Origin: a bacterium
GTDB lineage: Bacteria > DUMJ01
Assembly: GCA_014360335.1 (NCBI GenBank)
Contig: JACIXS010000100.1
Coordinates: 24,431-88,430, forward strand
Direction of reading: 5' to 3'
DNA: 64,000 nt
Part shown: in pieces, positions 8,117 to 64,000 of the stretch
How positions within the stretch are numbered: the first letter of the stretch is position 1
How the letters are laid out: each line of letters starts with the position of its first letter
Notes under the pieces: generated by a model
What the model was told of the DNA's origin: nothing
Databases searched by the model: none
Seen by the model: the letters and a program-made list of their open reading frames with translations, nothing else
Translations under genes and position numbers: made by a program

Positions 8117-8469
8117 TGGTGGAGGCGGCGGGAATCGAACCCGCGTCCGAGAATGAGACGCCAAAAGGCTCCTACAGGATTAGCCTCTGTTTACTTTTCC
8201 TTCTATAGGACCCCAGAGGCAGGGCTATAGAAGTAAGCTCACCTTTAATTTCCTCTTCCCCCTGTGAGCACCGGAGGAAGAGTTAGCCTGCTAGTGTCAG
8301 GCCATTTCCTACCTCGCAGGCTAAGGTAGGAATGACCTCTGCCTATCTAATTAGGCAGCTAGTGCTAACTGATTGTCAGCAGTTATTCTTTTACCGCATT
8401 TTTACGAGCCTGCGGTGACTCGTCCTGCTCCTTTTGACCTCTCCATCCCCGTCGAATCCTTACGCCCCC
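8117..8469 (-). ncRNA. ssrA: tmRNA (SsrA)
   Basis: The minus strand reads 5'-GGGGGCGUAAGGAUUCGACGGGGAU... and ends ...GGACGCGGGUUCGAUUCCCGCCGCCUCCACCA-3'. The acceptor stem has the G3:U pair. An internal tag reading frame GCU GAC AAU CAG UUA GCA CUA GCU GCC UAA encodes ADNQLALAA. Confidence 0.92.
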
Positions 8470-29722: not shown

Positions 29723-29733
29723 GGGGCTATAGT

Positions 29734-32916: not shown

Positions 32917-32922
32917 AAGTTA

Positions 32923-32952
32923 GGGGCTCTAATAGAGCCCCTTTATTATTTT
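32923..32952. terminator. GGGGCTCT/AGAGCCCC hairpin followed by a T-run, between two convergent genes
   Basis: Seen directly in the sequence. Confidence 0.55.
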
Positions 32953-33952
32953 AAACCATTTTTATGCCATCACTCTTTAAGAAGTCTATAATCTCATCTA
33001 CATAGCCAAAGGCAAGACAGACTACAGTGTCTGCTCCTCCATAGTATATAGCTATTCTTCCTGTTTGAGAATCACACAATGCAGCACAGGGAAATACAAC
33101 ATTCGGGACATCTCCCACACATTCGTATAACTCTTGAGGTGAAAGTAGATAACTTCTAGACCGATATTTTACTATCCAAGGTTTCTCATTATCTAATAAA
33201 GCACAGCCAAAGCTATATACATATCCATTACAGGATAGTAATACTCCATGATATATGAGTAGCCAACCTTCGCTTGTCTCTATGGGAGTTGGTCCAGCCC
33301 CTATCTTAAGTGATTGCCAAGAGGAGTATTGGTGCCCTGCAGACATTACAAATCTGTGACAGCCCCAATGAATCATATCTAGACTTTCACTATAGAATAT
33401 ATCGCCAAAGGGTGTGTGTCCTCTATCTGAGGGTCTACTTAACATTGCATATTTCCCATTAATCTTTCTTGGAAAAAGTACACCATTCCTATTGTAAGGG
33501 AGAAATGCATTTTCTATCTGATAGAACTTCTCAAAATCGAAAGTGTAACCCAACCCAATAGTAGGTCCATAGTATCCATTACACCAAGTGATATAGTATC
33601 TATCCTCTAACCAGGTTACTCTAGGATCATACTTATACATACTTACTAGAGGGTCTCTCGTTTCTTGAATGAAATCTATCGGTTCCTCACTAAGAGTCCA
33701 ATTAATTCCATCATCACTAAATCCGCTGTGAATATTCATAGCCCTGCTCTTATCATCCACCCTGAATACTCCAGCGAATCTATCTTTAAACTTTACCACT
33801 GCACTGTTAAATATGCTGTTTGCTCTTTTAATATGGTTCCTCTTTATAATAGGGTTCTTTGAGTATCTCCATATGACATCTTTACAGCCAGCTGGTCTTT
33901 CCTCCCATGGCATATTAGGGATAGACTCAGTATAGATTGTTATCTTGCCCAT
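32951..33952 (-). CDS. GH130-family glycoside phosphorylase (beta-mannoside phosphorylase-like)
   Basis: Roughly 330-aa five-bladed-propeller glycosidase. The family assignment is from overall similarity recalled for GH130 proteins. Confidence 0.65.
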
Positions 33953-38383: not shown

Positions 38384-38394
38384 GTAAAAGCTGT

Positions 38395-38575
38395 GAAGAG
38401 GAGTAGTAGCCATTTAAGGTGAACTCGCCTCAGAGCTGGATAGGTGAAATAGTAGTAGCTTATCCCGGGAATTCCCGTTATAGAATAGAGAGTGGGCTTA
38501 AAAGCCAATTAGGGTGGTACCGCGGAAAGCTTTCCGTCCCTAGCAGTTTGCTGTGGAGGGAAAGCTTTTTTATAA
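38395..38575 (+). promoter_or_regulatory. T-box riboswitch leader, with its intrinsic terminator spanning roughly 38526-38571
   Basis: Canonical T-box sequence AATTAGGGTGGTACCGCGG at 38507-38525. It is immediately followed by a terminator stem AAAGCUUUCC...GGAAAGCUUU plus UUUUUU whose 5' arm overlaps the T-box, which is the antiterminator/terminator alternation. A possible CUC (Leu) specifier lies in a GAACUCGCC context. Confidence 0.8.
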
Positions 38576-40260: not shown

Positions 40261-41924
40261 GATTAACCGGGGCACAGATAGTTATTGAAGCATTGAAACA
40301 TGAAGGGGTAGATGTTATCTTTGGAATCCCAGGAGGAGCAATCATTGATGTCTATGATGCCTTATATGATTCAGGTATAAGACATATCCTTGCCCATCAT
40401 GAGCAGGGTGCAGCCCATATGGCTGATGGTTATGCTAGAGCTACTGGAAGAGTAGGAGTATGTTTTGCTACCTCAGGCCCTGGAGCAACTAATCTTACTA
40501 CAGGAATAGCTAATGCTTATATGGATTCTATCCCTATAGTAGCGATTACAGGACAGGTAGCTACTCATTTGATAGGGAAAGATGCATTTCAGGAGGCAGA
40601 TACAACTGGTATTACTTCACCAATAACAAAGCACAATTATCTTGTAAAAGACGTTAATGAATTAGCCAGAATTATAAAGGAAGCATTCTATATAGCAAGA
40701 ACTGGACGACCTGGGCCTGTCCTTATAGACATACCTAAAAATATACAAACTGCTACTGCTGATTTTGATTACTCTTCTATAGAGATTGATATAAGGGGTT
40801 ACAAGCCTTCAATAACCGGACATATAAGACAGATAAAGGAAGCGGCTAGGCTTATAAATGATGCTAAGAAGCCTTGTATATTAGCTGGAGGCGGAGTTAT
40901 AACTGCAGGTGCAAGTGAGGAGCTCTTTAAATTAGCCACGAAAGCTAATATACCTGTGGCAACAACCTTTATGGGTATAGGAAGCTTCCCTCAAGACCAC
41001 CCATTATCCTTAAAATCCGCTGGTATGCATGGTAATTATGCTGCGAACTATGCCCTTATGGAGTGTGACCTACTCATAGCTATAGGATGTAGATTTAGTG
41101 ATAGGACTACTGGTAAGGTTTCTAGTTTTGCTTCTAAGGCTAAAAAGATTCATATAGATATAGACCCTGCCGAGATAAATAAGAACGTAATAGTAGATGT
41201 CCCTATAGTTGGAGATGCTAAGATTATCTTGAAAGCACTTATAGAATACGTTCAAGAGAAGAGGGAAGAGGAATGGCTAAGTTATATTATGGAACTCAAA
41301 GCTACTCATCCCCTTACATATGCAGATGGACCTACAATTAAGCCTCAATTTGTTATAGAGAAGCTCTGTGAGATAGTCCCAGATAATACAATTATAGTAA
41401 CAGAGGTAGGACAGAATCAGATGTGGTCCGCTCTATTTTTCACCCATAAAAAGCCTAGACACTTTATATCTTCTGGTGGTTTAGGAACTATGGGTTTTGG
41501 TTTTCCTGCTTCTATTGGAGCTAAGGTTGGTAGACCTGACGCGCTTGTAATCGATATAGCAGGGGATGGAAGTTTTCTAATGAACATTCAAGAACTTGCC
41601 ACTGCAGTAGAGAATAACATACCTATTAAAGTAGTTGTAATAAATAACAGGGCTCTTGGAATGGTTAGACAGTGGCAAGAGTTGTTCTATAAAAGGAGAT
41701 ATTCTGCTACTATCTTGAAAGAGGTTAATTTTGCTGAGATAGCAAAGGCTTTTGGAGCTAAGGGGATAAGGGTGACTGAGAAGGAAGGACTAGTTCCTGC
41801 TCTATACAGCGCTTTTGAATATCCAGGACCTGCGGTGGTGGATGTAGTAGTAGAACAGGAAGAGAATGTGGTACCGATGGTTCCTCCGGGTGCTCCAATA
41901 GACCAAATTATTGGAGGTAAGTAG
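40257..41924 (+). CDS. ilvB: Acetolactate synthase, large subunit
   Basis: TPP enzyme with the [21 protein letters not shown]-binding motif. Confidence 0.93.
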
Positions 41925-41925
41925 G

Positions 41926-42414
41926 ATGAGACATACTATTGCAGTCTTAGTAGAAAATAAATCTGGAGTATTAGCAAGGATATCTAACCTCTTTAGAAGA
42001 AGGGGGTACAATATAGAGAGTATTACTGTTGGAAAGTCGGAGAGGGAGGGAATAGCTAGGATAACATTAGAAGTAGACGGAGATGAATTAGTTATAGAAC
42101 AAGTAACAAAACAGCTAAATAAGCTTATAGATGTGATAAAAGTGAGCGACATAACTCATGATGAGATGATAGAGAGAGAACTTATGCTTATAAAGGTTAG
42201 TGCTGATGCTTCTACTAGGTCTGAGATACTTCAGATTGTTGATATATTTCGTGCAAGCGTAGTTGATGTGAGCCCTAAGGCTTTGGTGATAGAGATTACT
42301 GGTGATAGAGATAAGCTAGAAGCTTTTGAGACATTACTTCGACCCTTTGGAATAAAGGAGATAGCTTGCACAGGTAAGGTTGCTATGGTTAGGCATCCTA
42401 AGGAAATTAAATAA
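41926..42414 (+). CDS. ilvN: Acetolactate synthase, small (regulatory ACT) subunit
   Basis: [26 protein letters not shown]-domain start. An ATG at 41926 with GGAGGT upstream is preferred over the upstream in-frame start at 41911. Confidence 0.88.
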
Positions 42415-42432
42415 AAAAGGAGGCGTTTACTT

Positions 42433-43431
42433 ATGGCAAAAATATACTATGAACAAGATGTAAAGTATGATGCGTTATCTGGAAAGACAGTTGCTGTTAT
42501 AGGTTATGGAAGTCAAGGAAGAGCACAATCGAGAAACTTAAAGGATAGTGGGGTAAAGGTTATTGTAGGACTAAGAAAAGGAGGAAGGTCTTGGGAATTA
42601 GCCAAGTCTGAAGGTATGGACGTTACGACAATAGAAGAGGCATCAGAAGTAGGAGATGTTATACAGATCCTTATCCCTGATCAGATGCAACAAGAAGTGT
42701 ATGAAACTTCTATTAAGAAGCATCTAAATGAGGGAAAAGCACTAGGTTTTTCCCATGGTTTTAACATACACTATCATCAGATTATCCCTCCTGAGGGAGT
42801 GGATGTTTTTATGGTAGCACCTAAAGGACCTGGACCATTAGTAAGAAGAATGTACGAAGAGGGTAAGGGTGTTCCTAGCCTAATAGCTGTTTATAAAGAC
42901 TATTCAGGTAAAGCTAAAGATATAGCCCTTTCTTATGCAAAGGCTATTGGTTCTTTAAGGGCTGGGGTCATAGAGACTACATTCAAAGAAGAGACTGAGA
43001 CAGACCTCTTTGGTGAACAGGCTGTTCTCTGCGGAGGAGTAAACGAACTTATCAAGTATGGTTTTGAGGTCTTAGTAGAAGCTGGCTATCAACCTGAGAT
43101 TGCATACTTTGAATGTCTTAACGAGCTAAAGTTAATAGTAGACCTGATCTACGAGGGTGGAATTATAAATATGTGGAAAGGTGTAAGTGACACTGCTAAA
43201 TATGGTGGTTTGACGGTAGGACCTAAAATTATAACTAAGGAAGTAAAAGAACTTATGAGGAAAGCTTTGGAAAGGATACAGAATGGCGAATTTGCTAGAG
43301 AATGGGTGTTGGAGAATAAATCAGGTCAGGTAGTTCTTAAGGCTAGTATCGAATCCGCAGAGAATCATCCTATAGAAAAGGTTGGAAAGACTTTAAGGGA
43401 TATGATGCCATGGATAAAGAGGGGAGAGTAA
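42433..43431 (+). CDS. ilvC: Ketol-acid reductoisomerase
   Basis: [17 protein letters not shown] Rossmann motif; 332 aa. Confidence 0.95.
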
Positions 43432-43432
43432 A

Positions 43433-44923
43433 ATGAGAAAGGTCTTTATATTTGATACTACTCTTAGGGATGGCGAGCAAACCCCTAGAGTTACACTTGA
43501 ACCTCAAGAGAAACTTAGGATAGCTAAACAGCTTGAGGAAATGGGGGTAGATGTTATAGAGGCCGGTTTTCCCATTGCGTCTCCAGGTGATGTAGAAGCG
43601 GTTACTATAATCTCTAAAGAGATAAAGAATAGTATAGTATGTGGGTTGGCTAGGTCTATTAGGAAGGATATAGATACAGCGTGGTCTGCCCTTCAGTATG
43701 CAAAAAGACCTAGGATACACGTGTTTATAGCAACTAGCGATATACATATGAAGTATAAGCTGAGAAAGACTAAGGAGGAAGTATTAGAACAAGCTGTGGA
43801 GGCGGTAAGATATGCCAAATCTCTCTGTGAGGATGTGGAATTCTCCGCTGAAGATGCCACTAGGTCAGACCCAGAATTCTTAAGAGAGATTTTCTTACGA
43901 GTTATAGAGGCAGGAGCTACAGTTATAAATGTTCCTGATACTGTCGGTTACTGTGTGCCAAGTGAGTTCGGAAATCTTATAGCTCAGGTAAGAAGTTATA
44001 TCCCAGAAGATATCATTTTAAGTGTCCACTGCCATAATGACTTAGGTCTAGCTACTGCTAATTCCTTAGTTGGTGTACTTAATGGAGCTAATCAGGTAGA
44101 GGTAGCTATGAATGGATTGGGAGAAAGGGCAGGGAATGCTGCCTTTGAAGAAGTGGTAATGGCTATAAAAACAAGAAAAGACATATTTAACGCATATACA
44201 GATATAAAGACAGAGTATATTATGAGTCTAAGTAGGCTTGTAAGTGGGCTTACCGGCATACCAGTTCAGCCAAACAAAGCTATTGTTGGCATTAATGCCT
44301 TTGCTCATGAAGCGGGAATTCACCAGGATGGTATTCTTAAGGAGAGAAGCACTTACGAGATAATGAATCCTAAAGATATAGGTCTAGATTCCTCCGAGAT
44401 AGTGCTAGGTAAACATTCTGGTAGACATGCCCTTAATGAAAGGCTTAAACAGTTAGGTTACGTTCTCTCGGAAGAAGAACTGACTAGGGTTTTTGAAAGG
44501 TTTAAGGTGCTTGCTGATAAAAAGAGAGAGATCCTAGATAGAGACCTTATAGCCCTTTTAGAGGAAAAGCCTGTAGAATTACCTGTGTATAGACTCGTTA
44601 ATATGGAGGTAACAACAAAGATAAATAATAGCTCATATGCAAAGGTAGACCTTGAAAAAGCCGAAGAGAGATTCCATGGAGAATCAGAAGGAGATGGACC
44701 TATTGAGGCGCTTTTTAATGCTATAGAAAACGCTATTAATATGCACTTTGACCTTATAGACTTTTCTCTAAAGTCTGTTACTATGGGTAAAGATGCTTTG
44801 GGAGAAGCCTTAGTTAAGCTGAAAAAGGATGGAGAGGTTCATTCTGGTAGAGGCACTAGCAAGAACATTCTTGAGGCTAGTGTTATAGCATATATAAACG
44901 CTATAAATAGGGCTCTTGCTTAA
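43433..44923 (+). CDS. leuA: 2-isopropylmalate synthase / (R)-citramalate synthase family (short LeuA/CimA form)
   Basis: FDTTLRDGEQ N-terminal motif, HxH (HCHNDLGLA), and a C-terminal regulatory domain; 496 aa. Confidence 0.85.
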   Translation: MRKVFIFDTTLRDGEQTPRVTLEPQEKLRIAKQLEEMGVDVIEAGFPIASPGDVEAVTIISKEIKNSIVCGLARSIRKDIDTAWSALQYAKRPRIHVFIATSDIHMKYKLRKTKEEVLEQAVEAVRYAKSLCEDVEFSAEDATRSDPEFLREIFLRVIEAGATVINVPDTVGYCVPSEFGNLIAQVRSYIPEDIILSVHCHNDLGLATANSLVGVLNGANQVEVAMNGLGERAGNAAFEEVVMAIKTRKDIFNAYTDIKTEYIMSLSRLVSGLTGIPVQPNKAIVGINAFAHEAGIHQDGILKERSTYEIMNPKDIGLDSSEIVLGKHSGRHALNERLKQLGYVLSEEELTRVFERFKVLADKKREILDRDLIALLEEKPVELPVYRLVNMEVTTKINNSSYAKVDLEKAEERFHGESEGDGPIEALFNAIENAINMHFDLIDFSLKSVTMGKDALGEALVKLKKDGEVHSGRGTSKNILEASVIAYINAINRALA

Positions 44924-44962
44924 TCCCTACTAGGTTGATATAATCTAATATAGGTAAGAAAG

Positions 44963-46219
44963 ATGGGAATGACACTTACAGAAAAGATTATTTCTGCGCA
45001 TACAAATAAGGATGAGGTTCATAGCGGGGAATTTGTAATAGCTAAAGTCGATTTTTCTCTTGCCAATGATATAACTGGTCCTTTAGCTATTAAAGAGTTT
45101 GAGAAGATAGGGGTAGATAGGGTTTTCGATAAAGAGAGAATTGCACTTATCCCCGACCATTTTACCCCTAATAAGGATATCCCTAGTGCCGAGCAGTGTA
45201 AAGTCTTGAGAGAATTTGCCCGTAGGATGGACCTTAAATATTACTATGAAGTAGGACGGGTAGGTATCGAACATGCCCTTCTACCTGAAGAAGGCTTAGT
45301 TGTCCCCGGTGATGTAGTTATAGGTGCAGATTCGCATACATGTACCTATGGAGCTTTAGGGGCTTTCTCAACAGGTGTAGGAAGTACAGATTTGGCTAAT
45401 GTCTGGGCTACAGGTGATATATGGCTTAGAGTCCCTGAGAGTATAAAGTTTATACTATATGGTAAGCCTCAAAAGTGGGTCACTGGTAAAGATATTATCC
45501 TGAACATTATAGGACGTATAGGGGTAGAAGGGGCAAATTATATGGCGATGGAATTTTCAGGCGAAGCTCTAAAGTATATTTCTATGGACTCAAGATTTAC
45601 TATATGTAATATGGCTATCGAAGCTGGTGCAAAAAATGGTATTATCCCTTTTGATGATATTACAGCTAACTATATGAAGGGTAGAAACAAGAGACCTTAT
45701 AAGATATATCTTCCAGATGAGTCTGCAGATTATAAAGAGATAATAGAGATAGATGTCTCTAGCATCCCACTAGAAGTGGCTCTCCCTCATTTACCTTCTA
45801 ATGTAAAGTCTGTAGAGGACATTGGAGAGATATATATAGACCAAGTAGTCATAGGTTCTTGCACAAACGGAAGAATGGAAGACTTAAGGATAGCTGCTCA
45901 GATTTTAAAGGGCAAAAAGGTCCATCCATACGTTAGATTAATAGTCATTCCTGCCACCCAAGAGATATATCTACAGGCTTTAAAGGAGGGACTTATAGAG
46001 ATATTTATCTCTGCCGGTGCTAGTGTTTCTACACCTACCTGTGGTCCATGCTTAGGTGGACATATGGGTATCTTGGCTAAGGGGGAAAAAGCATTAGCAA
46101 CTACTAATAGGAATTTTATAGGCAGAATGGGTCATCCAGAAAGTGAAGTCTATCTCTGTGGACCAGCTGTAGCAGCTGCCTCTAGCATAGAAGGAAAGAT
46201 AACTGCTCCATATGATTAG
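44963..46219 (+). CDS. leuC: 3-isopropylmalate dehydratase large subunit (archaeal-type, about 420 aa, aconitase family)
   Basis: Aconitase-family cysteine triad region (GSCTNGR...CGPCLG). Confidence 0.85.
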
Positions 46220-51317: not shown

Positions 51318-53288
51318 TTACCTGAATATTATACCAAATACTAGCGCAATTATAGACATAAGCTTTATCAAGATATTCATAGAGGGACCTGCGGTATCCT
51401 TAAACGGATCACCAACAGTATCTCCAATTACAGCTGCTGCATGAGTGGGTGTTCCCTTACCACCTAAATTCCCAGCTTCGATGTACTTCTTAGCGTTATC
51501 CCAAGCACCACCGCTATTTGCCATCATAATAGCTAATGCTACCCCTGTCAATATAGCACCAAGTAGAAAACCTCCTACAGCTTCTTTACCCAACACTAGT
51601 CCTATAATAATGGGGGCAACAACCGCTGTAATGCTAGGAGCTAGCATCTCTCTTAAAGCTCCTTTAGTGGCTATGTCTACGCAACGTGCATACTCTGCTC
51701 TTGCCTTTCCTTCCATTAGCCCCTTAATCTCTCTAAATTGCCTCCTTACTTCTTCTACTATCAGATTAGCGGTTCTACCTACTGCTTCCATAGCAAATGC
51801 AGAGAACATAAATGGCATTAAGGCTCCTATAAATGCTCCTATTAGAGACTTAACAGAGAGGATATTCACTATACTTAGACCTACAGTATGTGTATAGGCA
51901 CTGAATAGGGCAAGAGCGGTTAATGCTGCAGAACCAATAGCAAAACCCTTCCCTATGGCAGCAGTGGTATTCCCTAGAGCATCTAGTCTATCTGTTATCT
52001 TACGAATATTAGCTCCAAGTCCAGCCATCTCAGCTATACCACCTGCATTATCTGCTATTGGTCCATAGGCATCTGTTGACATCACTATGCCTATAGTGGC
52101 TAACATTCCAACTCCGGCTATAGCTACACCATAGAGTCCATTCAGAGCCCAAGATATACCAATAGCACCTGCAATCATTATTACTGGCACTATGATGCTC
52201 TTCATTCCAAGGGCAAGTCCCCTTATAATAACCGTACCAGCACCGGTCTGTGCACTTTCAGCTAGAGATACTATAGGTTTACCAGATGTATAATACTCAG
52301 AGACAAGACCAATAATTATCCCCACTATAAGCCCAGCCAATAATGCAAAGAGTGGATTATAGGTATTTAGTAGGGATTTTGTTAAAGGTATAGCTACTAT
52401 TACTAAAATGATCGCAGATACATAGGTTCCCCATCTAAGAGCAGATTGGGGGTCTCCTTTCCCAAATAACTGTACATAGAAAGATCCAATTATAGATGCT
52501 ACGGTTCCTACAGCTATAAGGATAAGAGGATATAGGATTGCATTTAGGGATAACTCTTTAGAGAATGCAGTAAGTCCTATTACCATAGCAGCAATAACAG
52601 CTCCTACGTATGATTCAAAGAGGTCTGCACCCATCCCTGCAACGTCTCCAACGTTATCTCCTACGTTATCCGCTATGACACCCGCATTTCTTGGGTCATC
52701 CTCAGGTATATTCTTCTCTACTTTACCTACTAAGTCTGAGCCAACATCAGCGCTTTTTGTATATATACCTCCTCCTACACGGGCAAATAGAGCTACTGAG
52801 CTAGCACCCATTCCAAATGCATTTATAACGTTAGGGTCTTTAAAGATTAGGTAGGCTATAGAAAGACCAAATACCCCAAGACCTGCAACTGCAAGCCCCA
52901 TTACAGAGCCACCAGTGAAGGCAACTCTCAAAGCTTGAGACTGACCCTTCTTTGCTGCTTCTGTAGTCCTTACATTGGCTCTAGTAGCAGCTTGCATACC
53001 AAACCATCCTGCAAATATAGAAGATATACTACCCATAACGTATGCGATAGCACTGTACGGATTGATAAATATGGCTATTACAGCAGTCATAACGATAATA
53101 AAGTATACAAGAGTCAGATACTCCCTCTTTAAAAATGCTACTGCTCCTTCGTGTATAGCGGATGCTATCTCCCGCATTCTCTCTGTTCCAGCTGGTTGCT
53201 TTGATACCCAGGTATAGAAATAATATGCGAGCAGTAGCGTCCCACCTCCTATGATTGTAGAAAGCGTTAATAAGGTATTACTGCTCAT
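51318..53288 (-). CDS. hppA: Membrane-bound proton-translocating pyrophosphatase (V-type H+-PPase)
   Basis: Multiple PPase acidic motifs ([26 protein letters not shown]) and about 16 transmembrane helices. The ATG at 53288 (MSSNTLL...) is preferred because a GGAGGAAGGAG RBS sits 8 nt upstream; the ORF-track start at 53309 falls inside that RBS. Confidence 0.9.
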
Positions 53289-53308
53289 ATACGTCACTCC
53301 TTCCTCCA

Positions 53309-53869
53309 CTAGGATTTTATAGAATTAATTTTTTGCTTTTGTTTATGTCTTTTCTCTAACTCCCTGTATACATCTTGAGGAGTCAGCTTTAAATTTGCTA
53401 GTAAGACCAATATGTGATAGAAAAGGTCAGAGACTTCATATATCACCTCACCACGATCCTCTTTCATTCCTGCCAGAAGGACCTCTACTATCTCTTCCCC
53501 TATCTTTTTAAGTATCTTTTCTTTACCCTCTTTAAAGAGTTGAGATGTATAAGAACCTTCGGTAGGGTTAAGTTTTCTGGATAGGATGATTTCGTAAAGG
53601 GTATCCAGATTAAATCTAGTATAGTCTTCTTTAGAATACAACTCTTGGAAAAAGCATGATAGATGTCCTGTATGGCAGGCTACTCCCCTTTGTTCTACTA
53701 GTACAAGTAATGCATCATTATCGCAATCCAATCTAATCTCTTTTACCTTTTGTATATTGCCACTAGTTTCCCCCTTATTCCATAACTTTTGCCTCTCTCT
53801 ACTCCAAAACCAAGTAGTCCCTGTTTCTATTGTCCTTCTCAGAGACTCCTCATTCATATAACCCAACAT
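53309..53869 (-). CDS. hisIE: Bifunctional phosphoribosyl-AMP cyclohydrolase / phosphoribosyl-ATP pyrophosphatase
   Basis: HisI motifs ([27 protein letters not shown]) and a HisE C-terminus. The conserved HisI N-terminal segment continues in frame upstream of this ATG without a canonical start codon (see findings). Confidence 0.85.
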
Positions 53870-56597: not shown

Positions 56598-56643
56598 TTT
56601 ATATCCTTAACTTTTTTGAGATTTTGAATACACACCTAAGGTA

Positions 56644-56671
56644 TTATACTATAAAGAGACCCATAAGACAA
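56644..56671 (-). promoter_or_regulatory. Putative promoter TTGTCT-N17-TATAAT for hisB-hisH-hisA-hisF-hisIE
   Basis: Read on the minus strand in the 75-nt gap between the glxK stop and the hisB start. Confidence 0.3.
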
Positions 56672-56672: not shown

Positions 56673-57815
56673 TTAGCAAGATTTAAGTGCCTTTATTAAG
56701 CTACCAATCTGATAAGAAATCCATTCCAACTGTTCTTTAGTGCGCCTTATTGATTCTTCTAAGGTTATAGGGCCTCTAGTAACTGAGAATAGGGCGTCTG
56801 CCAATCCCTCCTCTATTAGAATTTCAGCATCTTCGTCTACAGCTCCACCTAATAGTATCACAGGTATAGCCTTCTCTTTAGCCTTTTTAGCTATTCCCGC
56901 TGGACCCTTCCCAAATATTGTTTGTCCATCTATCTTTCCTTCACCACTTATAACTATGTCTACTCCTTCTAATTTTCTCTCTATATCTAAAGTCTCTAAA
57001 ACAACTTCAATTCCAGGCTTTAGCTTGGCATTTAAAAAGGCAACTAGTCCTCCTCCTAATCCTCCAGCCGCTCCTGCTCCTGGAAGGTTCAATATATCCT
57101 TACCCAAGTCTCTTTTAACCACTTGAGCAAAATTAAATAATGCCCTATCTAATTCTTCTATTAACTCTTTGGTTCCACCCTTCTGTGGACCATAAACATA
57201 AGAAGCTCCTTCAGGTCCACATAGGGGATTTTTTACATCCGCCATTACTATAACTTCACACTCTTTTGCCAAAGGATGAAAATTACTCATATCAATAGTG
57301 TGAAGTTCTTTAAGTGCCAGTCCACCAAAGGGTAACTCTCTACCCTCTTTATCTAATAGCCTTGCTCCTAAAGCCTGTGACATTCCTGCACCGCCGTCAT
57401 TAGTAGCACTTCCACCTATTCCCACTAGTATTCTCTTTACTCCTCTATCTAATGCTTCCCTTATGAGTTCACCAACACCATAGGTAGTAGTAATAGCAGG
57501 GTTTCTTTTTTCTTTCGGAACTAAGGCTAAACCAGAAGCCCTTGCCATTTCTATAACAGCAGTCTTACCGTCACCTAGAATGCCAAACTTTGCTATTATT
57601 CTTTCTCCTAGAGGACCGGTTACCTCTTTTTCTATAAACTGTCCATTGGTAGCCTCTACTAAGACCTCAATTGTCCCATCCCCACCATCTGCTATTGGTA
57701 GAACGATAATATCACTATTAGGGAGGGCTTTTAAGAGCCCTCCCTTTATAGCCTCTCCAGCCTCTCTGGCGGAAAGAGCTTCCTTAAATGCGTTAGGAGC
57801 CACCAGTATCTTCAT
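56673..57815 (-). CDS. glxK: Glycerate kinase (GK-I / GlxK family)
   Basis: [12 protein letters not shown]...IADGGDGT N-terminus typical of the glycerate kinase family; 380 aa. Confidence 0.85.
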
Positions 57816-58795
57816 TTTTTCAACACTTCCGGATTTACCGGATTGGGTGGCATCTTTCCTGCTAATACCGCTAGGAGATTCTCTGCAGCCATCGTAGCCA
57901 TCTTGGTCCTTGTCTCTACACTTGCACTGGCTATATGAGGTAGTAGAACTGCATTCTCACATTCTGCTAATCCTGGGACAAGCTTAGGCTCAAACTCATA
58001 GACATCCAATCCTGCTCCTGCTATCCACCCTTCTTTTAGAGCCTTTACTAATGCATTTTCATCTACTACTGGTCCCCTTGAAGTGTTTATAAGATAAGCG
58101 GTCTTTTTCATCTTCTTTAGTCTCTCTTCATTTATCAGGTGATAAGTCTCAGGAGATAGATAGGTATGAAGTGAGACAAAATCGCTCTGCTCTAGAAGCT
58201 CATCTAAAGAGACAAATGTGGCATTTAATTCTTTTTCAAGTTCTTCAGGTATTCTCCTTATATCATTGTATAGGACCTTCATATTGAAACCTTTTGCTCT
58301 TCTTGCTACAGCCTGTCCAATCCTTCCCATGCCTATGATACCTAGTGTCTTTCCATAAACATCCTGCCCAAGAAAGAGCATAGGAGCCCAGCCTTCATAC
58401 TTTCCTGCTCTCGTAAACTTATCCGCTTCTACTACTCTTCTAGCGGTAGCTAAAATAAGAGCCCATGCCAAGTCTGCTGTAGTCTCAGTAAGAACCCCTG
58501 GGGTATTTGTTACTACTATACCTCTTTTAGTTGCCTCATTTACATCTATATTGTCATAACCTACCGCATAATTACTTACAACCTTTAACTGGGGCCCAGC
58601 AGCATCAAACACTTCCGCATCTATCTTATCTGTTAAGAGACAGAGTATGCCATCCTTGCCCTTTACTGCTTGAAGTAACTCCTCTCTTGTTAATACCCTA
58701 TCGTATGGATTTATCTCTACCTCATGCTCCTTTCTTATCATTTCTATTCCGGGCTCTGGAATACGCCTGGTTATATAAACCTTCAATGTATACAC
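57812..58795 (-). CDS. D-isomer-specific 2-hydroxyacid dehydrogenase (glyoxylate/hydroxypyruvate reductase type)
   Basis: NAD-binding GxGxxG ([12 protein letters not shown]) and the catalytic R/E/H arrangement; 327 aa. Confidence 0.85.
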
Positions 58796-58798: not shown

Positions 58799-60145
58799 CT
58801 AGCTTAGTAAAAATCCTGATGATGATATTATATCACCTAAACCTACTGTAAGCTTTGGTGACTGAACTACCTTGGTAGGAACTATTACAAGGCTGAAATT
58901 GTCTATATTCTTAATACCTTCGTACCCAGTTAATGTTATAGTTGGAACTCCTAAGCCTTTCTCTAAGTCTTCTAATGTCTCGTATCTGCCAAGTAGAGAC
59001 CTTGTGGCAGCTAAGATAGCAGAGAATAGAAGAGCGGTTCTCTCATTTCGCTCATTCTTTTCCCTAGTAATAGATATATAATGCCCAAGAGTGTGAAGTT
59101 GAATCCTCTTAAGAGGAGTCCTTTCCATAATCTTTAGCAAACCATCCACCAATTTTACTATAGGGAATCTTGTGTCTTTAAGTTCTTTTGCTAAATCTTG
59201 CTCTCCAAAATCACTAAGCAGTGTGGCAAATTCAATCTCGTTTAATCCGAGACTATCTATAACGGGGAATATATGCTTTACCACTAGACTTCTTATCAGA
59301 GAACTTCCGATAGAGGCAAATTCATAGTGGACCTTTAAACCTAATCTTTCTTTCATCTGGCTTACGAATTCGGCAACTGGAACTATAAAGTCTTCGCAGG
59401 TTTTACCCTCAGGATACCTTTCTAAAAGAATATGAAAGCCTGATACTAAGAAGTGTGTAAATTTATCTGGTATGAGGAATATATCTCTTTTAAACTCTTC
59501 ACTTACCCTTAATCTACAATTTACAGGATTCCAAGCTGCTATGAACCTATTGGCTCTTGGAGATTCATAGGTTGTTCCATCGAGCTCTATCTTTAATCCT
59601 TTATTGTATTCTAATATCCAGTGTATAGCAAATATCCCCTGGTCCTTCCATGCTTTTCTAGGAGAACGGAGTACTGGTTTATCATTCTCTCTAGTTAAAA
59701 CAAAGAGATTTTTTCTTTCAGGGAAGAGTTCAGCAAGTTCTTTGGTTAATGGATTTGCATATACTAGAATCTTTGAGAGTGGTAAAGGGGACAATAGACT
59801 AGCCATATTTGCCGAAGTTCCGCCAAGCCTCAATTGGTCATATCCAATGTTTTCTAAGGTCCATCTAAAGGTCTCTTCATTCTCTATCATCCTCTGATAG
59901 GCTAAACCTTCTCTTATGGAGATAAGGAGGTCAACAAGTAAGTCCTCTGGACTCCTTATAACCGATGTTGGTTCACTAGGAATACTTTTAATATGTGGAA
60001 ATTGCTCTAGAAGCCTCTTTAAGAGGTCTTCTTCTACTCTCTTTAATCCATCTATCGTTGAATGAAATCCAGTTATTACACCTGGAATCCTCTGTAGTTT
60101 TTTCCAGCCCTCCTCTAAAGCCTCTCTATACAGTTCTTCCCACAT
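58799..60145 (-). CDS. ADP-dependent sugar kinase family protein (archaeal ADP-glucokinase / ADP-phosphofructokinase family)
   Basis: Collinear blocks with Thermococcus/Pyrococcus ADP-GK/PFK as recalled: WEELY...GFHSTIDGL (archaeal WKRLY...AYNTNIDAI), LRLGGTSANMA, PRANRFIA, LGLNEIEFA, RIQLHTLGHY, ALLFSAILAA, and the C-terminal IVPTKVVQSPKLTVGLGDIISSSGF (archaeal [25 protein letters not shown]). Confidence 0.8.
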   Translation of the reverse strand: MWEELYREALEEGWKKLQRIPGVITGFHSTIDGLKRVEEDLLKRLLEQFPHIKSIPSEPTSVIRSPEDLLVDLLISIREGLAYQRMIENEETFRWTLENIGYDQLRLGGTSANMASLLSPLPLSKILVYANPLTKELAELFPERKNLFVLTRENDKPVLRSPRKAWKDQGIFAIHWILEYNKGLKIELDGTTYESPRANRFIAAWNPVNCRLRVSEEFKRDIFLIPDKFTHFLVSGFHILLERYPEGKTCEDFIVPVAEFVSQMKERLGLKVHYEFASIGSSLIRSLVVKHIFPVIDSLGLNEIEFATLLSDFGEQDLAKELKDTRFPIVKLVDGLLKIMERTPLKRIQLHTLGHYISITREKNERNERTALLFSAILAATRSLLGRYETLEDLEKGLGVPTITLTGYEGIKNIDNFSLVIVPTKVVQSPKLTVGLGDIISSSGFLLS

Positions 60146-60995
60146 TGTCTAAAGCCTCCTTGTACGCCTCTTCGGAAGAATAGTTCTTGTGTAGTATAAG
60201 TTTCATAGCTAAAGCCATAACCTCAGGTTTATCACTTAGGAATACATTTCTACCAACCACGAAACCACTAGCTCCAGCCTTTACGCCATCTTCGAAGTCT
60301 CTAAGGACATCTAAAGGATTTTCTCTCTTTGGACCTCCTAAAAGTAGTACCTTAGCATTTACACTATCTATTATCCTCTTAAATAGTTCTATACCCTCTT
60401 CCCTGGAGTTACTCTTTACATAGGGGATTTTAAGTATCGGCACCCTAAAGTCGTTAGTTATTATAGAGACCCACTTTATAGCCTCATAAGACCTATCCAT
60501 AACCAACTTTCCATCCTCTAGATTCATATAGAGGGGTTCTACCATAAGAGGCATAGACCATTTCTCGCACTCTTCTACCACATTAGCTAGAAGTGTTAAC
60601 TGCTCATTAGTAAACTGATTATTCTTATTGAACTTTATTAGAAGTTTTACTCCATCTAGTCCCCATCTAAGAGCGGTTTCTACCGTACAAACACATCTAT
60701 CATCCATCTCAAAAGTTGTTCCAGCTAGCCCAGTTCTATTAAGGCTTAATACTAATCCTTTATCTCTTAGGTTACCATTGACTATAAGTTGAGCTAAAGG
60801 CTCTTTTGTGGTCATTATAGCATCCAGATAGGGGGCTAATCTTTCTATGAGAGAAACCAAATTAGCAAAGTTATCTATCCCTTCTTGAATGCCTCGCTGT
60901 CTATGGTCTATAGCTAGAACCATGGACTTTCCATCTTTTGCAAAGATCCGAGACATCCTATTGGTTATTCCTACATCATAAAAAAGTGACTCCAT
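60126..60995 (-). CDS. Archaeal-type class I fructose-bisphosphate aldolase family (DeoC/FbaB-like) aldolase
   Basis: RIFAKDGKSMVLAIDH (Schiff-base aldolase N-terminal block) and C-terminal GASGFVVGRNVF, as in class IA FBA and ADH synthase. Confidence 0.78.
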   Translation of the reverse strand: MESLFYDVGITNRMSRIFAKDGKSMVLAIDHRQRGIQEGIDNFANLVSLIERLAPYLDAIMTTKEPLAQLIVNGNLRDKGLVLSLNRTGLAGTTFEMDDRCVCTVETALRWGLDGVKLLIKFNKNNQFTNEQLTLLANVVEECEKWSMPLMVEPLYMNLEDGKLVMDRSYEAIKWVSIITNDFRVPILKIPYVKSNSREEGIELFKRIIDSVNAKVLLLGGPKRENPLDVLRDFEDGVKAGASGFVVGRNVFLSDKPEVMALAMKLILHKNYSSEEAYKEALDNVGRTV

Positions 60996-61006: not shown

Positions 61007-62029
61007 TTAGTCGTTTATTACTACAGCCTTTCCAGTCTTACTAGATTCATAGACCGCAAGTATAAATTGTATAGCTCTTCTACCATCCTCTCCAGTTATA
61101 CTAGGGGTCCTATTGTATAATACTGCTTCTGCCATATCTCTTATCTGTGCTATATGCCCTTTTATAAAGAGAGCTCTAGGGTCACTTGATGCTGATTCTC
61201 CTTGAGTAGATAAGCCTTTTCTCTCTTCTCCCTTTATAAACCAGTCTCTTACGAAAGGACCTTCTACCACTACACTACCATTTGTCCCATGAACCTCTAT
61301 CCTCTCTTTGAAGCCGGGATAACAGGCAGTTGAACCCTGTATTACACCTAAGGCTCCATTTTTGTACTTTATAATGGCTATAGCCACATCCTCCACCTCT
61401 ATATTGTGTGCTAGAGTCCCACAGTATGCAGTTATCTCTTTGACAGGTCCTGCAAGATAGAGAAGTTGATCCACAAAATGTACGGATTGATTCATTAGTG
61501 CTCCTCCACCATCTAGAGCCCAAGTTCCACGCCAATCTGCACTATCATAATATTCCTGTGTTCTCCACCACTTTACATAGGCATCAGCCATAACAATCTT
61601 ACCAAGTTTTCCTGAATCTATGGCAGATTTTAGTTCTTGAATTCCAGGGTCAAATCTATGCTGTGATATAACACTAAGTTTAACTCCTGCTTTTTGACAG
61701 GCCTCTATAAGGGCATCAGCCTTTTCTAATGTAATATCTATTGGTTTTTCCACCAAAACGTGCTTTCCTTTTTTCGCAGCCTTTATACCCAAATCTGCAT
61801 GTAATCCACTAGGGACACAGATATTTATTACATCTATGTCATTTCTAGCTAACATCTCATCGTAATCAGCATACCAGTCCACGCCGTACTTTTCTCCTAA
61901 AGCCTTGGCTCTTTCCGGTATAATATCACATACAGCCTTTAACTCTGCTATCTCTATATTCTTTATAGCTTCCGCATGTGTTGGACCTATAACGCCACAT
62001 CCAACTATACCAAATCTTACTTTATTCAT
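61007..62029 (-). CDS. Gfo/Idh/MocA-family NAD(P)-dependent oxidoreductase (inositol 2-dehydrogenase-like)
   Basis: RFGIVGCGVIG Rossmann N-terminus and a C-terminal Gfo/Idh/MocA domain; 340 aa. Confidence 0.85.
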   Translation of the reverse strand: MNKVRFGIVGCGVIGPTHAEAIKNIEIAELKAVCDIIPERAKALGEKYGVDWYADYDEMLARNDIDVINICVPSGLHADLGIKAAKKGKHVLVEKPIDITLEKADALIEACQKAGVKLSVISQHRFDPGIQELKSAIDSGKLGKIVMADAYVKWWRTQEYYDSADWRGTWALDGGGALMNQSVHFVDQLLYLAGPVKEITAYCGTLAHNIEVEDVAIAIIKYKNGALGVIQGSTACYPGFKERIEVHGTNGSVVVEGPFVRDWFIKGEERKGLSTQGESASSDPRALFIKGHIAQIRDMAEAVLYNRTPSITGEDGRRAIQFILAVYESSKTGKAVVIND

Positions 62030-62033: not shown

Positions 62034-62855
62034 TCACCTCTCTATCTCAGACAATATTTTCTTTAATGCTTGAGAAGCTTTTTTAAAGAGCTCAGGACCA
62101 GAAAATCCTTGAAATTGCCCACTATGAGCAAGGTGTGGTTCAAGGCTCAAGAAATATTCTCTGCTTTTTTTCTTCAGAGACATCAAAAGTTCCTTTATTT
62201 CTCCATCTCCTTCTCCAGCAGGAACTTCAACTCCATCTGAGAAGTGCGCATCTTTTATATGAACATACTCTATATAATCTTCTAAAAGTGGATAAGCCTC
62301 TCTAAAGGGCTTAACATTGCACTGTATAAAGTTTGAAGGGTCAAATACCGCTTTTAGATTTGGAGAGTTTATACTCTTTAGTATATCGAGACACCTTTCA
62401 GGTGTATCTCCATATATCTTCTTTTCGTTTTCATGTAATAGTATAACTCCTTCTTTCTCTGCTATCTTTACAAGTTCTCCTAACCTTTCTAAGGATATCT
62501 TTCTAAGCTCATCTATGCTCATACCTTCTTCTGGATAGAATGAGAATATCCTGATATATGAGGTACCGAAGAAATGTGCTAGTCTTATGGCATTCTGTAG
62601 CTTCTCCTTTTGTCCTTCTATATCTTCCTTCGCTCTAACCTTTCCGATTGGAGATGCTATAGCAGATACCTTTATTCCATAATTATCTAACATCTCCTTT
62701 ATCTTCTTGCTATCTTCTTCGGTCAGAGTTACAACATTCTTACCAAAGGCGCTTCTTAACTCCAGGTAACCTATCTCCTCCTCTTTTAGTATTTTTAGCT
62801 GTTTCTCAAAGTCAGGTGATATTTCATCACCAAAACCAGAGAGTTTATACCACAT
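62034..62855 (-). CDS. Sugar phosphate isomerase/epimerase (xylose isomerase-like TIM barrel; IolE/IolI-like)
   Basis: AP_endonuc_2-type TIM barrel pattern (HENE..., metal ligands spaced as in inosose dehydratase/isomerase). Confidence 0.75.
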   Translation of the reverse strand: MWYKLSGFGDEISPDFEKQLKILKEEEIGYLELRSAFGKNVVTLTEEDSKKIKEMLDNYGIKVSAIASPIGKVRAKEDIEGQKEKLQNAIRLAHFFGTSYIRIFSFYPEEGMSIDELRKISLERLGELVKIAEKEGVILLHENEKKIYGDTPERCLDILKSINSPNLKAVFDPSNFIQCNVKPFREAYPLLEDYIEYVHIKDAHFSDGVEVPAGEGDGEIKELLMSLKKKSREYFLSLEPHLAHSGQFQGFSGPELFKKASQALKKILSEIER

Positions 62856-62868: not shown

Positions 62869-63666
62869 TTATAACTCTTTAACTATCTGTTCTGCCCATT
62901 TTATCCAGGCGTGCTTTACATCATCTCTAGGAATATTTACAGGGTCCTCTCCTGCTAATACCCATAAATAGTATAACGAATATCCTGGTGCAGCTACTAC
63001 AGGATGATATCCTCTGGTGATGGGAAGGGCTGTATAATCCGTTACTGTATAGACCTCATCCATATCTCCCTCTTCTGTATATATCCTCTGAAAGCCAAAC
63101 CCACTAGGTGGATTTAGCCTATATAGGTAAACCTCCTCCATCTTCCACTCATAGGGAGGATTATGTTTATCATGCTTGTGTGGAGGATAGCTAGACCAGT
63201 TTCCTGGAGGATTGACAGTTTCTCCCATTATTATATGTTTTGCTCCAATCCTTTTATCTATAACCTGGGTTACATATCTCTTCCAGTTATGTGTACCAAC
63301 AACTCTTCTTTCTACTTCATTCGGATTTATTACTGTTACGTCTACATTATTTGGTTCTGACTTTACAGTTGCAAAGACTAATTCACTATTATCCAAAGCC
63401 TTGATATCTACTTTTTTCCCTGGAGGAATATATAATCCCCAAGGTTTACTGTTGAATATCTCACTCCTAGGTCCTAGTATATATCTACTATCGACCTCTA
63501 CCCTTCCAGTGCATAGAAGACATCCGATTTCCCTTTCTTTCTCTCCTAAAGATACAACTTCACTAGATTTCAATCTAAGGACAAATAACCTTGTCCATTC
63601 AAGACCCTGTACAGGAACTTCTAATATCCCTGTACCTTCTGGGACTTTAGCTAGTTTAGAACTCAT
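62869..63666 (-). CDS. iolB: 5-deoxy-glucuronate isomerase-like cupin (IolB/KduI family)
   Basis: PGNWSSYPPHKHD and EEVYLYR...GFGFQRIY blocks recalled as IolB hallmarks; 265 aa. Confidence 0.72.
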   Translation of the reverse strand: MSSKLAKVPEGTGILEVPVQGLEWTRLFVLRLKSSEVVSLGEKEREIGCLLCTGRVEVDSRYILGPRSEIFNSKPWGLYIPPGKKVDIKALDNSELVFATVKSEPNNVDVTVINPNEVERRVVGTHNWKRYVTQVIDKRIGAKHIIMGETVNPPGNWSSYPPHKHDKHNPPYEWKMEEVYLYRLNPPSGFGFQRIYTEEGDMDEVYTVTDYTALPITRGYHPVVAAPGYSLYYLWVLAGEDPVNIPRDDVKHAWIKWAEQIVKEL

Positions 63667-64000
63667 CTATTCCCACTCCTTTCTTAAGTATTCAAGACTT
63701 TTAGGTAATTCGTTCTTCTTATCCTCCCATCTGCACTCTATAGATATAGCCCCTTTATAGTTTGCCTCTTTAAGGGCATTAAATAGGGCTTTGAAATTAT
63801 AGTTGTTTTTCCCTGGTGCAACTCTTCCTCTATCGGATACGTGTACATGATAAAGTTTTTCTTTTATTTTATAGATATTAGATAATGGTTCATCCTCCAA
63901 ATCTGCATGATAATTGTCTATCAGTACCCCTATATTTGGGCTATTGACCCTCTCTGCAAACTCTAACCCTTCTAATGTGGTATTTATAATATTACTCTCC
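63667..64000 (-). CDS. Second xylose isomerase-like TIM-barrel protein, C-terminal part (5' end lies beyond the window)
   Basis: The frame is open to the window edge (…LEGLEFAERVNSPNIGVLIDNYHADMEDEPL…HVHVSD…). Confidence 0.7.
   Translation of the reverse strand, partial: ESNIINTTLEGLEFAERVNSPNIGVLIDNYHADLEDEPLSNIYKIKEKLYHVHVSDRGRVAPGKNNYNFKALFNALKEANYKGAISIECRWEDKKNELPKSLEYLRKEWE

Follow-up and report, generated by a model that had tools for sequence, protein, structure and literature searches.

An ADP-dependent sugar kinase of an uncharacterised bacterial subfamily, encoded in a conserved sugar-acid catabolic operon

The 64,000-nucleotide stretch of contig JACIXS010000100.1 analysed here (hereafter the window) encodes on its minus strand, at positions 58799..60145, a 448-amino-acid protein with an ATG start that belongs to the adenosine diphosphate (ADP)-dependent sugar kinases. 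This kinase is a member of an uncharacterised bacterial subfamily and lies in a conserved operon for sugar-acid catabolism, whose genes encode, in order, a LacI regulator, a first triose-phosphate isomerase (TIM) barrel protein, an IolB-like protein, a second TIM barrel protein, a Gfo/Idh/MocA dehydrogenase, an aldolase, the kinase, a hydroxypyruvate reductase and a glycerate kinase. Combined, pocket residues and gene neighbourhood point to an ADP-dependent kinase of keto-uronates (5-keto-hexonates), a prediction to which we assign a probability of about 0.5; its product would be cleaved to dihydroxyacetone phosphate (DHAP) and tartronate semialdehyde, the latter being converted to glycerate. 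The sugar pocket may well have been remodelled to accept an anionic keto-sugar acid in place of glucose or fructose 6-phosphate (F6P). A bolder and more tentative extension is that an IolB-family isomerase, a third class of ADP-dependent kinase acting on keto-uronates, a class I aldolase and recovery as phosphoglycerate constitute a new hexuronate pathway resembling Embden-Meyerhof-Parnas (EMP) glycolysis, the kinase class being spread over at least 16 bacterial lineages.

Membership of the ADP-dependent kinase family, proposed in an earlier note on this DNA, was borne out by a full-length match to Pfam PF04587 (ADP_PFK_GK) over residues 22-446 of the kinase and profile positions 2-429 of 430 (E=2.1e-77; 261 bits, gathering cut-off 27), which excludes chance as an explanation. 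The C-terminal block of the protein, TVGLGDIISSSGFLLS, and its GLGD-containing segment, TVGLGDIISSSGF, have the ribokinase-like form that the note had described. A sequence search of the PDB retrieved every solved ADP-dependent kinase with E values from 1e-74 to 1e-47, the best being 6c8z, an ADP-dependent phosphofructokinase (ADP-PFK). An AlphaFold2 model built with 27 homologues as input (predicted local distance difference test 93.7, predicted template-modelling score 0.91) has the expected two-domain fold, with a large Rossmann-like domain and a large lid domain. In Foldseek comparisons the model gave template-modelling (TM) scores of 0.80-0.86 to 22 chains of ADP-dependent glucokinases (ADP-GKs) and ADP-PFKs, and only about 0.4 to adenosine triphosphate (ATP)-dependent PfkB and adenosine kinases. 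Neither PF00294 nor an IolC profile matched the protein in Pfam and NCBIfam. The top NCBIfam match was the ADP-PFK equivalog TIGR02045, at 279.7 bits and below its cut-off of 408.1; the ADP-GK equivalogs NF010641 and NF010642 scored 238.6 (cut-off 554) and 155.3 (cut-off 387). Among deposited sequences, a hypothetical protein from a 'bacterium' metagenome-assembled genome (MAG) is identical to the kinase, and public annotation reads 'ADP-dependent glucokinase/phosphofructokinase'. The host is bacterial, as the note had held: the window contains a tmRNA (8117..8469), a T-box leader (38384..38544), a single-chain RpoC and genes for alanine racemase and D-Ala-D-Ala ligase.

Sequence comparisons place the kinase in a third, bacterial lineage of the family, which is no recent offshoot of the Thermococcales or Methanococcales enzymes. 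The signature of this clade, H-[T/V]-D / Q / GGT..N / A.H / R / x-W-N / H / N..E / D, was nearly invariant over the 120 best database matches (36-100% identity) and was found in 64 loci recovered from genome and metagenome scans, which represent 16 lineages at 60% kinase identity. The corresponding positions read N-N-D-[E/A]-Q-I-K-N-R-S-R-Q-D-D in PFK-type and N-N-D-E-Q-I-[L/F]-H-R-[A/Y]-D-[Q/H]-N-D in GK-type sequences. In neighbour-joining trees of 153 sequences, with capped distances and 200 bootstraps, the signature clade split from every GK-type and PFK-type sequence in 200/200 bootstraps. Source names among the 120 best matches include Limnochordia/Bacillota, Omnitrophota, Latescibacteria and Chloroflexi. 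Bacterial members are rare, in agreement with the note: an exhaustive HMMER search of 1.84 billion representatives (50% identity) returned 601 family members at E<=1e-3, among which the bacterial-type clade made up roughly the top 17.

The sugar pocket was mapped by placing the residues of the F6P complex of AncMsPFK (6XIO) on an alignment of the 120 homologues and reference sequences. In 6XIO the 6-phosphate of F6P is contacted by N32, N34, E90, K179, N181 and Q244 (PMC7948494, Munoz et al.), whose equivalents in the kinase are H28, T30, Q84, A173, H175 and H238. K179 and R212 (AncMsPFK numbering) are conserved in all specific and bifunctional ADP-PFKs (PMC7948494), and Lys and Arg were present at these positions in 26 of the 26 PFK-type sequences compared. 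Both PFK-defining residues are missing from the kinase, K179 being replaced by A173 and R212, near the phosphate site, by N206. The ring and catalytic contacts D36, G115 and D471 are retained as D32, G109 and D438.

The same substitutions bear on the idea of a PFK-like kinase working with a matching aldolase on a phosphorylated or sulfonated ketose, be it F6P, tagatose 6-phosphate, sedoheptulose 7-phosphate or, as in the sulfo-EMP pathway, 6-deoxy-6-sulfofructose. Such an activity would agree with the ADP-PFK identity of both the best PDB match and the top NCBIfam match, and the pairing of a kinase with a DeoC/LacD-family aldolase mirrors LacC/LacD and YihV/YihT. Three His of the pocket could hold a phosphate or a sulfonate, and tripartite ATP-independent periplasmic (TRAP) transporters, found in clusters related to the operon, can carry sulfonates, with 8t9t among the weaker matches of their binding proteins. 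We consider this activity improbable, given that Ala and Asn occupy the places of the Lys and Arg found in all ADP-PFKs, that a first kinase or phosphotransferase system, a sulfoquinovosidase and a sulfolactaldehyde reductase or dehydrogenase are all absent, that the glycerate kinase and hydroxypyruvate reductase would be left without purpose, and that the TRAP binding proteins score about 170 bits higher with the uronate group than with an isethionate binder.

For the comparison with GKs, the Thermococcus litoralis glucokinase and metagenomic GK-type sequences were used. The glucose set N34, D36, E90, Q116, His at the 181 position, Q244 and D471 corresponds to T30, D32, Q84, T110, H175, H238 and D438 in the kinase, which retains only the Asp, the His and the catalytic Asp; the four other ligands are replaced (Asn by Thr or Val, Glu by Gln, Gln by Thr and Gln by His). 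The kinase shares with GKs the His (H175) and an NxxE motif, and differs further by an Asn in place of Asp (N206) and a gained Trp (W205). Altogether, two acidic residues are neutralised (Glu to Gln, Asp to Asn) and two His and one Trp are gained, in a pocket made of H28, T30, D32, Q84, T110, N113, A173, H175, W205, N206 and H238. The gain of His and Trp together with the loss of acidic residues suggests a pocket that fits an anionic group smaller than phosphate.

An ordinary ADP-dependent hexokinase, phosphorylating glucose, mannose, fructose or another neutral sugar for glycolysis, with a place in the operon that reflects a sugar released or made upstream, would account for the GK-position His and the GK-like NxxE, for the stand-alone kinase genes of Limnochordia-like genomes, for the glycoside hydrolases (GH4, GH130) near some homologues and for the public GK/PFK annotation. 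It is nevertheless quite unlikely: the replacement of the four glucose ligands is invariant, the scores lie far below the GK equivalog cut-offs, and recurrent coupling to DHAP-type aldolases of two sublineages is unexpected for a hexose 6-kinase.

The catalytic, nucleotide and metal sites of the kinase are intact. R200, H273-Y-E275, N302-E-I-E305, H351, V427 and G435-L436-G-D438 are each conserved in 116-120 of the 120 homologues; the roles of the catalytic Asp of GXGD, the HXE and N/DXXE motifs and the Arg on the ADP beta-phosphate, each kept in 118-120 of the homologues, are taken from published work (PMC7948494). Ile or Leu as second residue of GXGD is a determinant of an ADP-type donor (PMC5931981, Nagata et al.), and this residue is L436 in the kinase and Leu in 116 and Met in 4 of the homologues. 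An intact catalytic and ADP site beside an altered pocket predicts an active kinase, which should use ADP and have a sugar specificity different from those of GKs and PFKs; judged by its specificity residues, whose inspection gave neither a GK nor a PFK pocket, it is neither a glucokinase nor a phosphofructokinase. The collinearity with Thermococcales GKs and PFKs put forward in the earlier note therefore overstates the kinship, given the scores below equivalog cut-offs, the lack of K179, R212 and the GK glucose ligands, and the separate clade. Its caution about the substrate was justified in that glucose or F6P cannot be assumed by default, and was too pessimistic in calling the substrate unpredictable, since the pocket residues and the conserved gene neighbourhood restrict the choice to an anionic keto-sugar acid.

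Variation around the signature was also observed. A sub-variant of the clade, H-V-D-R-T-C-A-H-R-W-N-Q, carrying the changes Q84 to Arg, N113 to Cys and H238 to Gln, was found in P0102, P0243, L039, L041, L042, L049 and L063, with a Cys at position 204, just before the Trp, in place of Ala, Ser or Gly; these changes may shift its specificity. The signature of L069/P0250, H-V-D-E-N-N-A-H..W-N-Q, appears intermediate. Further sequence groups within PF04587 depart from both the GK and the PFK signature, as does, for instance, N-[V/L/F]-D-H-Q-I-K-N-R-[S/T]-P-H-N-D (P0301, P0309, P0327, P0340, P0341, P0346, P0348, P0356, P0362 and P0374), and the functional diversity of PF04587, to go by such signatures, may be broader than the two known activities.

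The operon genes present in the window lie on the minus strand. The window ends inside the gene of TIM barrel 1, of which the 3' part (63667..64000) is present, with a stop that abuts the start of the IolB-like gene; it resembles ketose 3-epimerases, IolO and hydroxypyruvate isomerases. Its full-length orthologue at L004:5722-6474 scored 118 bits with IolO (5-keto-L-gluconate epimerase), 95 with psicose 3-epimerase and 68 with Hyi, all below cut-off. The IolB/KduI-family cupin that follows (62869..63666, 265 aa; PF04962 E=6e-71; TIGR04378 IolB 196 bits, cut-off 205) is a predicted uronate aldose-ketose isomerase. TIM barrel 2 (62034..62855, 273 aa), a xylose-isomerase-like putative isomerase or epimerase, matched PF01261 (E=2.4e-27) and gave weak NCBIfam matches. 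Next come the IolG-like Gfo/Idh/MocA NAD(P) oxidoreductase assigned by Pfam (61007..62029, 340 aa; TIGR04380 iolG 185 bits, below its cut-off of 355) and the class I (Schiff-base) aldolase of DhnA/DeoC type (60126..60995, 289 aa), which is Cgl0159-like (PF22649 E=1.5e-29; PF01791 E=6.5e-21). At its 3' end, the aldolase gene runs exactly 20 nt into the kinase gene; this end also contains the Shine-Dalgarno sequence of the kinase, AAGGAGG (60155..60161), 9 nt before the kinase ATG, in keeping with the tight translational coupling noticed before. The D-2-hydroxyacid dehydrogenase gene (57812..58795, 327 aa; PF02826/PF00389), for a glyoxylate/hydroxypyruvate reductase (NF009714 450 bits, cut-off 455), begins 3 nt after the kinase stop. 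The last gene encodes a glycerate kinase (56673..57815, 380 aa; PF02595 E=2e-146; TIGR00045 490 bits, above cut-off) and overlaps the reductase gene by 4 nt, a coupling that points to a C3 hydroxy-acid product.

Intergenic gaps within the operon are 0-13 nt where genes do not overlap by 20 or 4 nt. The LacI gene precedes TIM barrel 1 in orthologous loci, and the nine-gene unit is intact in 14 of the 14 loci of the window lineage, with kinase identities of 71-92%. Genes upstream of LacI differ among these loci, which sets the upstream boundary of the operon at LacI; at the other end, the his genes that lie downstream of the glycerate kinase gene in the window are replaced by other genes in locus L015, indicating that the operon ends at glycerate kinase.

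The partner aldolase has Cgl0159 (3fok) as its best PDB match. Its Schiff-base residue K189 aligns with K177 of the Thermoproteus tenax fructose-bisphosphate aldolase (FBPA), and the DH motif and the phosphate-binding GGP and GRN motifs are retained, which identifies it as a class I enzyme of DhnA/DeoC type. It is predicted to cleave the kinase product to DHAP and tartronate semialdehyde. It scored only 92 bits with the archaeal class IA FBPA equivalog NF040816 (cut-off 430) and gave no PF09863 match in Pfam. Its closest outgroup relatives (42-47% identity) are encoded on archaeal contigs, directly behind the gene of an FGGY kinase.

These data leave little of the recently transferred archaeal modified-EMP module, ADP-PFK or ADP-GK with FBPA, that the earlier note had suspected. 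The family is predominantly archaeal and the nearest relatives of the aldolase outside its lineage are on archaeal contigs. By contrast, the kinase clade is bacterial, with several phyla among its source names, and is split from archaeal GKs and PFKs in all bootstraps; GC content around the kinase gene is 0.39-0.40, equal to the window average; the operon is conserved down to 71% identity and has the content of sugar-acid catabolism; the aldolase is not a class IA FBPA, and its archaeal relatives pair with FGGY and not with ADP-dependent kinases. An archaeal glycolytic module is thus largely refuted, and we see very little chance for it.

On the archaeal contigs themselves (L095 7363-9840, L096 1-2044, L097 4433-6833), which carry genes for PCNA, GINS, L44e, S27e and eIF2alpha nearby, the FGGY/aldolase pair is divergent from genes for a DeoC aldolase, a DeoC::4Fe-4S fusion and an aldehyde:ferredoxin oxidoreductase. 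This cluster represents a possible archaeal ketose-1-phosphate pathway.

The gene contexts of distant clade members were compared with that of the window. A DhnA/Cgl0159-type aldolase was found within the available flank in 7 of the 16 lineages, either as a separate gene overlapping the kinase gene by 4 nt (L010/L011 and L067) or fused to an N-terminal xylose-isomerase-like TIM barrel (L032, L044, L045-47, L054 and L058). The aldolases of these distant clusters are about 50% identical to one another and 25-30% identical to the window aldolase; that two aldolase sublineages were recruited beside the same kinase type argues for a functional and not a historical link. IolB recurs beside the kinase in L045-47 and L058, the L047 protein reaching 221 bits and thereby exceeding the IolB equivalog cut-off of 205. 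A Gfo/Idh/MocA dehydrogenase gene lies directly 3' of the kinase gene in L054, L055 and L065, a hydroxypyruvate reductase is encoded nearby in L032 and L040, and DeoR regulators also recur. TRAP transporters are encoded near the kinase in L045-47, L054 and L065. The solute-binding proteins of L047 and L054 matched 4x8r best (E=1.5e-90 and 3.6e-74), in a group that includes 4n8y, and this uronate group scored about 170 bits above the isethionate binder. The ligand in 4X8R is glucuronate and that in 4N8Y galacturonate (PMC11668362).

Other features of these clusters were recorded. Downstream of the TIM-barrel::Cgl0159-like aldolase fusions, of about 585-720 aa (L032 13624-15378(-), L044 3391-5559, L047 2-1882, L054 1446-3590), a PCC-domain protein (PF03479) is often encoded, joined in L047 by an M24 creatinase/prolidase-like protein. 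We know of no description of this fusion architecture. Interpretation of the aldolase reading frames of about 700 aa as IolC-DUF2090 fusions, which would have left the ADP-dependent kinase superfluous, was rejected, Pfam assigning them the TIM-barrel and Cgl0159-aldolase domains and no PfkB domain. In several lineages a divergent transketolase-like thiamine diphosphate (ThDP) protein of 750-775 aa has its gene immediately 3' of the kinase gene or of a kinase-Gfo gene pair (L044 6845-9127, L054 9369-11639, L061 3732-6053, L062 2437-4764, L065 4338-6590); it matched Transketolase_N only and scored far below transketolase equivalog cut-offs. In L035, the gene of a split transketolase subunit extends over the beginning of the kinase gene. 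In one further lineage (L012 9001-10422, L013 9001-10419, L014 9001-10425, L037 and L051), the kinase, 37-41% identical to that of the window and with an identical pocket signature, is always encoded directly after a GT4 glycosyltransferase, the 3-deoxy-D-manno-octulosonate (Kdo) transferase KdtA and LpxK, and in L013 its gene overlaps the lpxK stop. This placement suggests either an involvement in lipid A/Kdo sugar metabolism or an operon end that is conserved but incidental.

On these grounds a pathway can be proposed, for which we infer the substrate, the aldolase products and the order of steps from the computed family, fold, residues, pocket conservation and operon conservation and from the uronate-type transporter of related clusters. 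The IolB/KduI family comprises ketol-isomerases of uronate derivatives. The entry compound would be a hexuronate of glucuronate or galacturonate type, or a 5-keto-hexonate delivered by the Gfo/Idh/MocA dehydrogenase. The IolB-like enzyme would convert the hexuronate to its keto form (fructuronate, tagaturonate or 5-keto-gluconate), and the epimerase-like TIM barrel may interconvert keto-acids. In its furanose form a keto-hexonate would be an analogue of F6P with a carboxylate replacing the CH2-O-phosphate, and the position of this exchange is exactly the rebuilt part of the pocket, where a Lys, an Arg and two acidic residues have been lost and His, Asn, Gln and Trp gained. The kinase would phosphorylate the primary alcohol beside the keto group, by the same chemistry as ADP-PFK at C1 of F6P, and the translationally coupled class I aldolase would release DHAP and tartronate semialdehyde from its product by a retro-aldol reaction. 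A PF01261 TIM-barrel isomerase (Hyi-like), the hydroxypyruvate reductase and the glycerate kinase would then take tartronate semialdehyde to phosphoglycerate. The model would give a defined role to every gene of the operon apart from those of the Gfo dehydrogenase and one TIM barrel, two proteins that may channel aldonates or cyclitols into the keto-acid pool or epimerise this pool.

Related activities have been described. IolO epimerises 5-keto-L-gluconate and LguG tagaturonate, and the known routes from these keto-acids are reduction and dehydration to 2-keto-3-deoxygluconate (KDG) (PMC12632266). A kinase of tagaturonate, fructuronate or 5-ketogluconate, or a pathway of the proposed kind, was not found in the searchable literature, nor were reports of an ADP-dependent iolC or of a kinase/aldolase route from glucuronate to tartronate semialdehyde and DHAP. 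A role as KDG kinase was considered but not retained, because the partner aldolase belongs to the DHAP-type DhnA enzymes and not to the Eda or dihydrodipicolinate synthase (DHDPS) type, and because pyruvate plus glyceraldehyde 3-phosphate (GAP) would need neither the reductase nor the glycerate kinase.

Presence of an IolB homologue raises a different interpretation, in which the kinase is a non-homologous functional analogue of IolC in a variant myo-inositol pathway, acting on 5-dehydro-2-deoxy-D-gluconate (DKG) supplied by IolB, and the aldolase yields DHAP and malonate semialdehyde. The IolB-like proteins score near or above the equivalog cut-off (window 196 bits, L047 221), the operon has an IolG-like dehydrogenase and no PfkB-type IolC, and LacD-related class I aldolase domains (DUF2090) are predicted DKG-6-phosphate aldolases (PMC9007349). 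Nevertheless, IolE, IolD and IolA were not found in the operon, the whole 64-kb window or any related locus, and a hydroxypyruvate reductase and a glycerate kinase make no sense for malonate semialdehyde. The TRAP transporters of related clusters are of uronate type, not inositol, DKG has no hydroxyl for forming the furanose ring although the ring-binding residues are conserved, and the window aldolase has no PF09863 match. We therefore regard the IolC-like role as unlikely, if worth keeping in mind. A canonical inositol operon was rejected, with these three genes missing throughout and acetolactate synthase (ilvB), within the T-box-controlled ilv/leu operon, as the sole ThDP enzyme of the window.

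Several observations weigh against the keto-uronate kinase and temper the probability given above. The pocket lacks an Arg or Lys of the type that commonly holds carboxylates. The window operon has no transporter, the link to uronates being carried over from clusters whose kinases are 37-41% identical (with an identical pocket) and whose aldolase domains are only 25-30% identical to the window aldolase. In three Limnochordia-like lineages the kinase gene stands alone and in one lineage it directly follows kdtA-lpxK; as the pocket is invariant in these genes too, a more general substrate would also fit. The homology to IolB (196-221 bits to the equivalog), taken at face value, favours the 2-deoxy compound DKG. 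Finally, the model leaves the Gfo dehydrogenase, TIM barrel 2 and the often adjacent transketolase-like protein of about 750 aa without a role.

At the edges of the operon, a sigma-70-like promoter match, TTGTCT-17-TATAAT (56643-56671, minus strand), lies in the 75 nt that separate hisB from the glycerate kinase gene and is consistent with separate transcription of the his genes, and in L004 a type I CRISPR-Cas set (Cas6, a CXXC-CXXC protein and Cas7/DevR; 475-4540, minus strand) is divergently upstream of the LacI gene. Elsewhere in the window, a membrane-bound Na+/H+-translocating pyrophosphatase (51318-53309, minus strand; 915 bits) is encoded downstream of the his genes. The T-box leader on the plus strand (38384-38544, 107 bits) precedes an ilvD-ilvB-(gap)-ilvC-leuA-leuC operon (38596-46219, plus strand), and branched-chain amino-acid biosynthesis in this lineage appears to be under tRNA-sensing control. 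A glycogen-type cluster at 25722-33952 encodes two GH57 proteins, one of which includes the C-domain of a branching enzyme, together with a GT5 glycogen synthase and a GalT-like protein, followed by a 5'-nucleotidase and a convergent GH130 phosphorylase; L044 likewise has a GH130 gene close to its kinase cluster.

A coherent bacterial clade with an invariant and differently built pocket would add a third specificity class to the ADP-dependent kinase family and offer a natural experiment in the re-tooling of a PFK phosphate site or a GK glucose site. Uronic acids rank among the main building blocks of pectin, hemicellulose, alginate and glycosaminoglycans. If true, the proposed route would constitute a new form of uronic-acid catabolism in thermophilic and anaerobic uncultured bacteria, bypassing UxaC, UxuAB, KdgK and KdgA and using ADP as donor. 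It would also correct the annotations 'ADP-dependent glucokinase/phosphofructokinase' and 'class I fructose-bisphosphate aldolase', which inflate inferred glycolysis in MAGs and are likely misleading for metabolic reconstruction.

Compared with known systems, the kinase has the family and fold of the ADP-PFKs (AncMsPFK 6XIO/6C8Z, Pyrococcus horikoshii 1U2X; about 30% identity, TM 0.81-0.84), with the same catalytic Asp, Arg on the ADP beta-phosphate and HxE motif, and would share their regiochemistry, phosphorylating the CH2OH beside the keto carbon of a ketose with a distal anionic group and passing the product to a class I aldolase. Unlike them, it lacks K179, R212 and all six 6-phosphate contacts, has NxxE where PFKs have DxxE, scores below the equivalog cut-off and falls in a separate clade; for its substrate, a carboxylate is predicted in place of the distal phosphate. 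With the ADP-GKs (T. litoralis 1GC5/4B8S, Pyrococcus furiosus 1UA4, mouse ADPGK) it has in common the family (31-33% identity), the fold (TM up to 0.86), the NxxE motif and a His where AncMsPFK has N181, and differs in having Thr or Val, Gln, Thr and His for the glucose ligands Asn, Glu, Gln and Gln, Asn for Asp and an added Trp, and in being encoded in a catabolic operon with an aldolase and not acting at the entry of glycolysis. The IolC/IolB/IolJ module for myo-inositol (DKG kinase, 5-deoxyglucuronate isomerase and DKG-6-phosphate aldolase), with its DUF2090 aldolases, follows the same logic of a uronate-type isomerase, a kinase of the CH2OH beside the keto group of a keto-hexonate and a DHAP-releasing aldolase, and the window operon likewise encodes a homologue of IolB and a class I aldolase related to LacD/DhnA; it differs in that its kinase comes from outside the PfkB family, that IolE, IolD and IolA are missing, and that the downstream genes imply a 2-hydroxy C3 product (tartronate semialdehyde) in place of malonate semialdehyde. 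The canonical hexuronate pathway (UxaC, UxuB/UxaB, UxuA/UxaA, KdgK, KdgA) probably has in common with the proposed route both its starting compounds, glucuronate or galacturonate imported by a TRAP system, and its first intermediate, fructuronate or tagaturonate. None of its enzymes is encoded here, and instead of leading through KDG to pyruvate and GAP, the proposed route would go by direct phosphorylation and aldol cleavage to DHAP and a C3 acid. Lastly, the glucarate/galactarate (GarL-GarR-GarK) and glyoxylate (Gcl-Hyi-GlxR-GlxK) routes also take tartronate semialdehyde or hydroxypyruvate through D-glycerate to phosphoglycerate with a PF02595 glycerate kinase and a PF01261 isomerase-like protein, whereas in the operon described here the semialdehyde would come from a phosphorylated keto-uronate by way of a class I aldolase, and the reductase is a D-2-hydroxyacid dehydrogenase and not of GarR type.

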